A stretch of DNA of 12,111 bases. Origin: a virus (taxonomy: Duplodnaviria > Heunggongvirae > Uroviricota > Caudoviricetes). The notes under the pieces are model-generated. The model did no database searches. It had not been told where the DNA came from and was given only the letters and a program-made list of their open reading frames with translations. Numbering within the stretch: the first letter of the stretch is position 1; each line of letters begins with the position of its first letter. The translations under genes were made by a program, and so were the position numbers. Shown piece by piece: positions 729 to 3,700 of this stretch. The stretch lies in IMG/VR virus record IMGVR_UViG_2537562217_000015; one strand, 5' to 3'.

Positions 729-3700
729 TCAGCTGATACTGATACCTGCTGTGGATTTTTTCATCACCACAACCAGCAGATCGCTGATACTGGTTGTTGG
801 TGTCCAGTTATTCGCTCCTGATGAAGATACGGTGAATGTCAGTGTCAGCGTCCCCTGTCCGGCAGGCATATCTATAACTGAGGAAAATACGCCCTGAGCA
901 TCCGTCGTGGACTGATTAAAAATCTCCTGACCATTGCGGGTCACTCTTAACCGGCAGGTTGAATACCAGTATGACTGTTGGTTATTACTGTTGAAATTCT
1001 CATGCTTACCACCGCGGAATAACACTGGCGGTATCATGACCTGCCGGTCAAATTTCTGATCATCACTGATTCTTACCGTGATGGTGCCACTGGCATAACT
1101 GTTCGTGCGGGGGAAAGACTTGCTGACCGTTTTGACAATATCGCCTTCAATCTGATTGGCTGACAGTTTCCCCTTAATCTGACAGTTCTCATTAATCGTG
1201 ACGTTGTTGAGCGTCCCGGAGTTCGCATTCACACTGCCACTGATATCCGCATTTTTAGCGGTCAGCTTTCCGTCCGGTGTCAGGGAAAAGGCCGGAGGAT
1301 TGCCGCCGCTGGTAATGGTGGGGGCCGTCAGGCGCTTCAGGAACACGTCGTTCATGAATATCTGGTTGCCCTGCGCCACAAACATCGGCGTTTCATTCTC
1401 GTTTGCCGGGTCAATAAACGCGATACGATTGGCGGCAACCAGAAACTGGCTCAGTTTGCCTTCCTCCGTGTCCTCCATACTGAGGCCAATACCCGCGACA
1501 TAATGTTTGCCGTCTTTGGTCTGCTCAATTTTGACAGCCCACATGGCATTCCATTTATCGTTAGCATCCTTCCACTCTTTCGAAAACTCCTCCAGTCTGC
1601 TGGCGTTATCCTCCGTCAGCTCGACTTTTTCCAGCAGCTCTTTACCGAGATGGGATTCGGTTATCTTGCCTTTGAAAAAATCCAGGTAACCTTCCGCATC
1701 ATCGCTCGCCCGACCGACGGCCTCCACGAATGCCGATTTGCCAACGGTGTTCACACTGCGGATATAAAAGTAATAATCATGGCCCGGTTTGATATTGATA
1801 CTGGCGGCTATCCAGTACAGCGCCGTACCAAGATAGCGGGCTGTGGTTTCAACCTGCCTGATATCCGCAATCCGCTTTTCCGAGAACCAGAACTCAAACT
1901 GTACCGTCGGATCATAAACCGCAAGATGCGGCGTGGCGGTTATCTGAAAATAGCCCGGTGTCAGCTCAATCCGCGACGGCGCTGCCGGGGCGGCAATCCG
2001 GAACGATACCGACGCCGGGTCTCCCTGCTGTCCCCGGGCATTTACTGCCCGGACTGTCAGCCTGTAGTTCCCCAGCGCCAGTTGCGTGAAGCGGTATGTG
2101 GTTTCCGCCGTCCGGGCCGTGCTGACCAGCCGCTCAATGCCTTCATCCGCGGCCACGGTCAGGCGAAGCATAAAGCTCACGCCCTTCACCACCTTCGGCG
2201 TGTCCCAGCGGGCCAGTACCTGATACTCCCCGCTGTCTGCGGTGACTTCGGCAGTCAGGTGCTGCACCGCGGGCGGCGTGACACCATTCACCGTGCCGCT
2301 CTGGTCGCCGTCAAAGTGCGCCCCGTTATCCACGATGGCCTCTTTCTCCGGCACATGCTGCACGGCGGTGATGGCATACGTGCCGTCGTCGTTCTCACGG
2401 ATACTCACACAGCGGAACAGGCGCTGGCGCAACGTCGGCAACTTCAGCCCCCACACGCTGTATTCAGCAACGCCGTCAGGAACCCGGTTCACTTTCACCT
2501 TCACGCCGTCGGTGACGGACTGGACCTCCACGCTGACCGGATTACCCTCACCGTCAACCAGGCTTATCAGCGTGGTGCCGGAGGATGGCAGCGTGATTTC
2601 ACGGTCGAGCGTCAGCGTCCGGGTCTGGCTGTTCACCGCCAGCACGCGACCACCGATGCTGATACCGGCATAGTCATCATCGCAGATTTCAATAACATCG
2701 CCCGGCACATGGCGAAGCCCTTCTGCGCCCACGCTGAAATCCACGGTCTGCGTTTCCAGCAGTTCCGTTTTAATCAGCCACAGCCCGGCTCGGTGTGCCT
2801 GCCCCCGGCTGGTACAGCCAAAGGCATCCATCTTCGTGACGTTACGACCGTAACGGAGAATGGCCTGCGTATCTTCAACAAGCTCTGTCGCCGTCTCCCA
2901 GCCGTTATTCGGGTCAATCCAGTTCACCTCAACGGCATTATGGCGGTCCTTCAGGGCGCTGAAGCTGTAGCGGAACGGCGCGCCATCATCCGGCATCACC
3001 ACATTACTGCGGTTATAGGTCCACACCTTATCTGATGGTCGGTCCTGCACGAACGTCAGCGTCTGCCCGTTCCATACCGGCATACAGCGCATCGCCGAGC
3101 AGAAATCACTGAGCACATCCCACGCCTTACGCTGCGTGGTCAGCCAGGCATTACAGGTGATGCGCGGCTCCGTGCCGCCAAAACCGTCCGGCACTGACTG
3201 GTCGCAGTACTGGCCGATGACATACAGCGCCCATTTATCCACATCCGCCGCACCAAGACGTTTCCCCATGCCGTAGCGCGGGTGGGTCAGCATATCCCAC
3301 AGACACCAGGCCGGGTTGTTGCTGTATGCCGGCTTAAACGTTCCGTCCCAGATACCGCTGTATTGCCGCGTCTGCGGGTTATAGTTCGACGGCACCTGCA
3401 GAATGCGCCCGCGAAGATGATAATTACGGCTCACCTGCTGGCTGCCGAACTGCTCCGAGTCCACCTGCACGCCGACCAGTGCCGTGTTCGGGTAGCACTG
3501 TTTCACATCGATGATTTCGGTGTATGACGACCAGAGCGTTTTGTTCTGCAGCTGGTCTGTGGTGCTGTCCGGCGTCATCCTGCGCATCCGGATGTTGAAC
3601 GGGCGCGGCGGCAGGTTATCCACCACCACCGAGGCCAGATACTGCGAGGTGGTTTTGCCTTTAATGGTGATGTCTTTTTCCGTCACCCAGCCACCGTTAC

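Follow-up and report, generated by a model that had tools for sequence, protein, structure and literature searches.

In the A8 construct, the C-terminus of a natural E. coli gpJ was fused to lambda gpJ at amino acid 964, and this graft retargets lambda from LamB to OmpC (Brödel et al., Nature 2024, PMC11338833). The A8 particles can transfer DNA to cells that lack lamB. When they were assayed on cells deleted for lamB and ompC that carried OmpC variants in trans, efficient delivery by A8, by 1A2 or by both was obtained for 21 of the 23 variants, leaving two of the 23 uncovered; 1A2 was efficient with the OmpC variant of EDL933 and not with that of MG1655 (PMC11338833). The same porin is required by a natural long-tailed Stx2a phage, vB_EcoS_phi330 (phi330): the Keio strain deleted for ompC gave zero plaques, and plaques returned with Plac-ompC (PMC12502783). 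The domains of phi330, 434 and lambda are mutually only 35–40% identical (PMC12502783). In the lambda–LamB structures, once loops have entered the mouth of the porin, the trimeric domain splays and the fibre twists, and this is followed by opening of the tail tip (PMC11101478).

Here, we compared these systems with the J gene found in a stretch of 12,111 nucleotides of a Caudoviricetes virus (IMG/VR record IMGVR_UViG_2537562217_000015), referred to below as the window. With a probability of about 0.9, we consider this J to be a natural chimera that joins lambda-type codons 1–973 to the OmpC-binding, A8-type codons 974–1132, the latter gained by homologous recombination.

The J gene and its divergent C-terminus

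The minus strand of the window corresponds to the distal part of a lambdoid tail operon, in which the gene order H-M-L-K-I-J-lom is colinear with that of lambda and mEp460 (Table 1). J is an intact open reading frame encoding a protein equal in length to lambda gpJ, and a PDB sequence search revealed an end-to-end match with the lambda gpJ chain 8iyk_J (2319 bits). Each of the six Pfam families of a lambda-type gpJ (Phage-tail_3, FNIII-A_GpJ, Ig_J, Ig_J_second, Phage_Tail_Tip, and Ig_GpJ_C) scored above its cut-off, and their order along the protein is the expected one. By blastn, the lambda-like block extends for about 5.5 kb, from position ~6680 in H to 1171, and the exact comparison places its end at 1208. 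This 5.5-kb block is itself a mosaic piece made up of the 3′ end of H, M, L, K, I, and the J body. The tape measure protein H, with ~1018 aa as compared with 853 aa in lambda, is of the mEp460/cdtI type, and its nucleotide similarity to lambda starts only near 6680, in the last part of the gene.

Table 1. Features of the window, with nucleotide identity to two reference phages where it was determined.
Feature	Position	Strand	Description and basis	Identity to Stx1_131719	Identity to lambda
Hairpin after lom	15..36	-	terminator-like; consensus scan; terminator annotated at the matching place in mEp460
lom	63..662	-	Ail/Lom outer-membrane beta-barrel protein, 199 aa; Pfam Ail_Lom, E = 1.3e-120	97%	58%
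Intergenic region	about 662-729			100%	56%
Hairpin right after the J stop codon	692..711	-	terminator-like; consensus scan
J	729..4127	-	tail tip/central fibre protein, intact ORF, 1132 aa; ORF list and translation
J 3′ end	about 729-789			100%	65%
Receptor-binding module, A8/OmpC type	729..1207	-	codons 974-1132 plus stop; identity to A8 gpJ, PDB 9wca/9wcb chain J
Ig-like C-terminal receptor-binding domain	732..1106	-	Pfam PF12421 Ig_GpJ_C, aa 1008-1132; E = 5.1e-36, 124 bits
Tip core	790-1207			99.5%	52.5%
Crossover interval	1208..1220	-	codons about 970-974 (after ...SGTL, before N); three-way comparison of window, lambda and Stx1_131719
Linker	1208-1372			78.2%	99.4%
Lambda-like J body	1208..4127	-	codons 1-973; hub domains, FNIII domains, helical shaft, beta-prism fibre	74.6%	94.5%
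ORF opposite J	1503-3035	+	antisense, 510 aa; most likely a mechanical ORF without function
I	4188-4859	-
K	4757-5542	-
L	5505-6203	-
M	6213-6542	-
H	6542-9628	-	likely ATG at 9598
IS66-family element	9685-12111, to window end	+	99.7% identical to ISEc22 of E. coli F8704-2
tnpA of ISEc22-like element	9765-10169	+
tnpB of ISEc22-like element	10166-10513	+

To delimit the lambda-like part, J was aligned globally with the gpJ of lambda (NC_001416). An earlier note, made from the sequence of the window, had described about 980 residues of J as lambda-like and the last ~150 as different from lambda, and both parts of this description were borne out: amino acids 1–972 showed 97.5% identity (24 substitutions), residues 973–1000 showed 64%, and identity fell to about 39–41% over residues 985–1132 or 1001–1132, a region in which three indels of −4, +5, and −1 aa were found. 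Both protein strings quoted in that note are present in the translation of J. High identity to the LamB-binding domain of lambda was thus absent from amino acids 974–1132, which are 41% identical at the protein level and 52.5% at the nucleotide level. Consistent with this, a PDB search with the last 174 aa of J scored 369 bits against 9wca versus 147 bits against the lambda entry 8xcj.

The DNA alignment located the change precisely. The J genes of the window and of lambda share 94.5% of their nucleotides as far as the first indel, and J nucleotides 2730–2920 form a run of 191 nt that does not contain any mismatch. The first mismatch after this run is J nucleotide 2921 (window 1207), the second base of codon 974 (S to N), and 3′ of it a mismatch occurs at about every second or third base. 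From the sequences compared, the identity contrast at codon 974 is far beyond chance, and by our own estimate a mismatch-free run of this length would be very unlikely to arise by chance in a gene that is 5.5% divergent overall. The divergent module therefore spans 159 aa; the earlier note had drawn it as 729–1180, with an upper limit that falls just inside the module, and the segment we delimited is 27 nt longer, reaching 1207.

We also determined the share of differing codons among those that specify the same amino acid in both phages. This synonymous-type measure was 9.3% upstream of codon 974 and 63% downstream of it, suggesting that the module represents an old, separate lineage and not the product of a quick local change.

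Breakpoint and reciprocal switch of identity

The decisive comparison partner was the long-tailed Stx1a phage Stx1_131719, which was set against lambda in a three-way view with the window. In this view, the last mismatch of the Stx1a-phage type was found at position 1221 and the first of the lambda type at 1207, which places the crossover within the 13 nt between them. The nucleotide-level breakpoint that the earlier note had called for could thus be defined, and its proposal of a swapped host-range module agrees with the reciprocal switch of identity observed around this interval (Table 1). The non-lambda block does not end with J, since it extends through the intergenic terminator and lom. 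In long-tailed Stx phages, the right-hand block formed by the module, the terminator, and lom is found as well, joined there to a J body of quite another kind. In our reading, the module arrived by homologous recombination in the short conserved linker, together with the downstream terminator and lom.

Alternatively, strong diversifying selection could have changed the C-terminus in place, without any exchange of DNA. Receptor-binding domains are known targets of such selection. Lambda J is able to gain new receptor use by C-terminal point mutations (PMC11101478). Nevertheless, in-place divergence would have to account for the sudden increase of the synonymous-type differences at the boundary, for a step that is completed within 13 nt, for a non-lambda block that continues beyond J, and for the presence of the module at 99.5% nucleotide identity on a J body that is only 74.6% identical. 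We therefore regard this explanation as extremely unlikely, and recombination as the origin of the module.

The junction could also be an assembly artefact, that is, a chimeric contig put together from reads of two prophages in a polylysogen. The window does resemble a short contig lying between repeats, bounded on one side by the start of stf and on the other by an IS element, and up to 10 copies of the module occur per E. coli genome. Against this, the lambda-like J body, the module, and lom are colinear in phages 2H10, PhiR29_2, PhiR30_1, and Turner; the junction is spanned in a single aligned piece by 2H10 and PhiR29_2, and in two pieces by PhiR30_1 and Turner. The occurrence of the colinear chimera in independently sequenced phages, as well as an intact reading frame of exactly 1132 aa, leave the artefact with a negligible probability, and we continue with J as a natural chimera. 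As for the ends of the window, one lies just before the stf start codon (1–62) and the other within the terminal region of the IS element (12087–12111), 25 nt short of the right terminal repeat of the ISEc22-like element; the relatives continue with GTGGGGTGAATATGGCAGTAAAG beyond the first end of the window. Since both end sequences are repeated in polylysogens, the window may represent a complete short contig from a draft assembly. In a comparison with complete E. coli genomes, the full window had no match at 99% or more; the best ones reached about 96.5%, split over several pieces.

To view the junction in a wider set of alleles, the 3′ part of J and the downstream region were aligned for six phages (the window, lambda, 4A7, BP-4795, Stx2a_WGPS2, and cdtI). 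The centre of the tip (790–1207) is variable across all six, with 52–74% identity, and this variable core is bracketed by conserved sequence: upstream by the fibre linker and downstream, in most alleles, by the last ~20 codons of J, the terminator, and lom. The crossover interval lies inside a stretch that is conserved in all six J alleles, near the 'insertion point' at lambda amino acid 964 that Brödel et al. used for their chimeras. It is conceivable, though doubtful, that the conserved flanks function as arms dedicated to recombination and turn the tip into a portable cassette, with defective prophages serving as a reservoir of OmpC-variant specificities for incoming lambda-like phages; the evidence pointing in this direction consists of the flanks themselves and one crossover, located within the upstream flank.

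Regarding the downstream region, the intergenic sequence between J and lom is 100% identical to those of BP-4795, Stx2a_WGPS2, and Stx1_131719, and a rho-independent terminator is annotated in mEp460 at the position homologous to the hairpin that follows the J stop codon. The lom gene shows 96–97% nucleotide identity to those of BP-4795, Stx2a_WGPS2, cdtI, and Stx1_131719. We considered whether the lom allele is tied to a given tip class and rejected this idea, since nearly the same lom (96–97%) stands behind four tip classes. In the sequence ...DDGCHSN of Lom, the window has a Cys (TGC) where BP-4795, Stx2a_WGPS2, and cdtI have an Arg (CGC). In phage 4A7 (LR595864; L005 1380-1439), an 82% tip relative, a side tail fibre gene follows J directly without lom, indicating that lom is optional in the cassette region.

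OmpC as the putative receptor and the state of the prophage

The alignment with a J protein of known receptor that the earlier note had proposed gave a clear result: amino acids 965–1132 of J are 100% identical to the donor segment of A8 gpJ (PDB 9wca/9wcb chain J, 'A8 gpJ 713'). Over amino acids 713–1132, J and the A8 construct differ at five positions only, all of them upstream of residue 964, where the construct has the lambda residues. The 'A8 gpJ 713' protein accounts for six chains over the two entries, and when the PDB was searched with E. coli OmpC, three chains of 'Outer membrane porin C' were retrieved from 9wcb as well. According to our own reading of these entries, 9wca is the free fibre fragment and 9wcb the OmpC complex. 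In addition, the module of phi330 is 98.7% identical to that of J. What we observed directly is thus the chimeric structure of J, its breakpoint, and the identity of its tip to a module for which OmpC dependence has been published and a complex deposited.

The genetics of phi330, together with the A8 data and 9wcb, indicate OmpC as the receptor, in line with the proposal in the earlier note of a receptor other than LamB. The idea that the J module would bind the trimeric porin OmpC and not LamB is therefore supported. OmpC dependence has been established both for this same module carried by a lambda body and for its 98.7% identical counterpart in phi330, and by sequence identity it would apply to this J as well; the A8 data refer to a pure lambda body, from which the body of this J differs at 24 positions, all outside the module.

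It could be argued that the divergent C-terminus is a distant allele that still binds LamB, alone or in addition to another porin, given that it shares the Pfam domain and the protein length with lambda J and, with ~41% of the residues identical, conserves framework motifs (FDRQ and DMPAG, for instance). However, the identical module functions in cells deleted for lamB and served as an OmpC-recognising tip, it was deposited with OmpC in one PDB entry, and phi330, with its nearly identical module, loses its plaques on an ompC single deletion in which lamB is present. Binding to LamB is therefore very unlikely, and OmpC remains the preferred receptor. By analogy with the lambda–LamB system, the distal loops of the trimeric Ig-like domain would enter the OmpC trimer through its extracellular mouth; the splaying of the domain would then cause a change that travels up the fibre, and the tail tip would open for DNA ejection.

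That this particular copy of J is made and used is an inference, and one open to doubt because of an IS element present in tail gene T. A comparison with mEp460 places the ISEc22-like element, whose terminal repeat begins GTAAGCGTC, inside T at 114 nt from the end of the gene, with the H start ~86 nt downstream of the insertion. Besides tnpA and tnpB, the element carries tnpC. Its transposase is broken up by a 1-nt deletion near 11623, which leaves two ORFs, of 366 and 143 aa. The G-T tail assembly chaperone of lambda includes T. In the window T is interrupted, and the window covers no genes upstream of it; the prophage is thus probably defective and, to judge from this insertion, probably unable to assemble tails. 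In that case, J may be a silent passenger that persists only as recombination stock.

The frequency of the module was evaluated in 5426 complete E. coli genomes. Its DNA was matched in 2589 of them, with up to 10 copies per genome, and the best match was at least 99% identical in 1195 records; 208 phage records were also matched, many of them Stx1a or Stx2a phages. The DNA of the lambda tip (the 3′ end of J, L001:11426-11904, the counterpart of window 729–1207) was matched in 98 of the 5426 genomes, and the eight of these 98 that were listed are all laboratory strains, mostly DE3 lysogens. When the phage collection was classified by amino acid identity to the tip of the window, discrete classes were obtained: 98–100% (Stx1a and Stx2a phages, PhiR30_1, and phi330), about 82% (4A7 and Lambda_ev058), about 79% (BP-4795), about 62% (Stx2a_WGPS2), about 46% (cdtI), and 43.6% (lambda). 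The prevalence of the module and the existence of these classes indicate that differing from lambda is the normal state among the lambdoid prophages of E. coli. The tip of the window is the common E. coli allele, and that of lambda is the rare one.

As a practical consequence, J in this window should be annotated as an OmpC-using tail tip and not as a LamB-using one. Beyond what the earlier note had recognised, the receptor can be named as OmpC, the module turns out to be already characterised, and its allele is common in E. coli. The locus provides a clean, base-level example of the exchange of a lambdoid receptor tip at a conserved linker, and the genome counts put the textbook case of LamB in perspective. 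The combination of a lambda-type J body with an A8-type OmpC-binding tip is an ordinary result that was already known; it brings no new biology, given that the module is already present in engineered particles, in the PDB with OmpC, and in the genetics of a natural Stx phage. Neither the base-level breakpoint nor the prevalence figures come as a surprise, tidy as both are.

Comparison with known J systems

One of the nearest counterparts of this J is A8 gpJ, with which it shares an identical donor segment and the same design of a lambda-type body followed by the tip. The A8 protein was built in the laboratory on the exact lambda body, whereas the J of the window is a natural chimera in which five of the 24 body differences lie within amino acids 713–964, and whose junction is located ~6–10 codons downstream of the engineered one. 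The LamB-binding gpJ of lambda (PDB 8iyk, 8xcj) resembles it in length, domain order, the presence of PF12421, its neighbours from H to lom, and the near identity of the first 972 residues; in contrast, the last 159 aa diverge with three indels, OmpC takes the place of LamB, and lom is of a different allele.

The J proteins of Stx1_131719 and phi330 carry modules that are 98.7–100% identical in amino acid sequence to that of the window, and Stx1_131719 also has an identical terminator and a closely related lom. The difference resides in the J body, which in Stx1_131719 belongs to another lineage and contains extra sequence in the shaft region. The tip of 1A2 gpJ and of the Stx2a_WGPS2 type, found in O157:H7 prophages, is also an OmpC-dependent J tip, and the J 3′ end, the terminator, and lom of Stx2a_WGPS2 are common to the window; this type differs in that its module shows about 62% amino acid identity to that of the window. 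The best class for 1A2 gpJ was the Stx2a_WGPS2 type (183 bits versus at most 108 bits for the others), a comparison that serves for class assignment only, as the 1A2 sequence is recoded and OCR-damaged. Finally, the J of phage 434 is likewise a trimeric J-type central fibre that uses OmpC (PMC11101478; PMC12502783), but it represents a separate allele class, set apart by the low identity reported among the phi330, 434, and lambda domains (PMC12502783).
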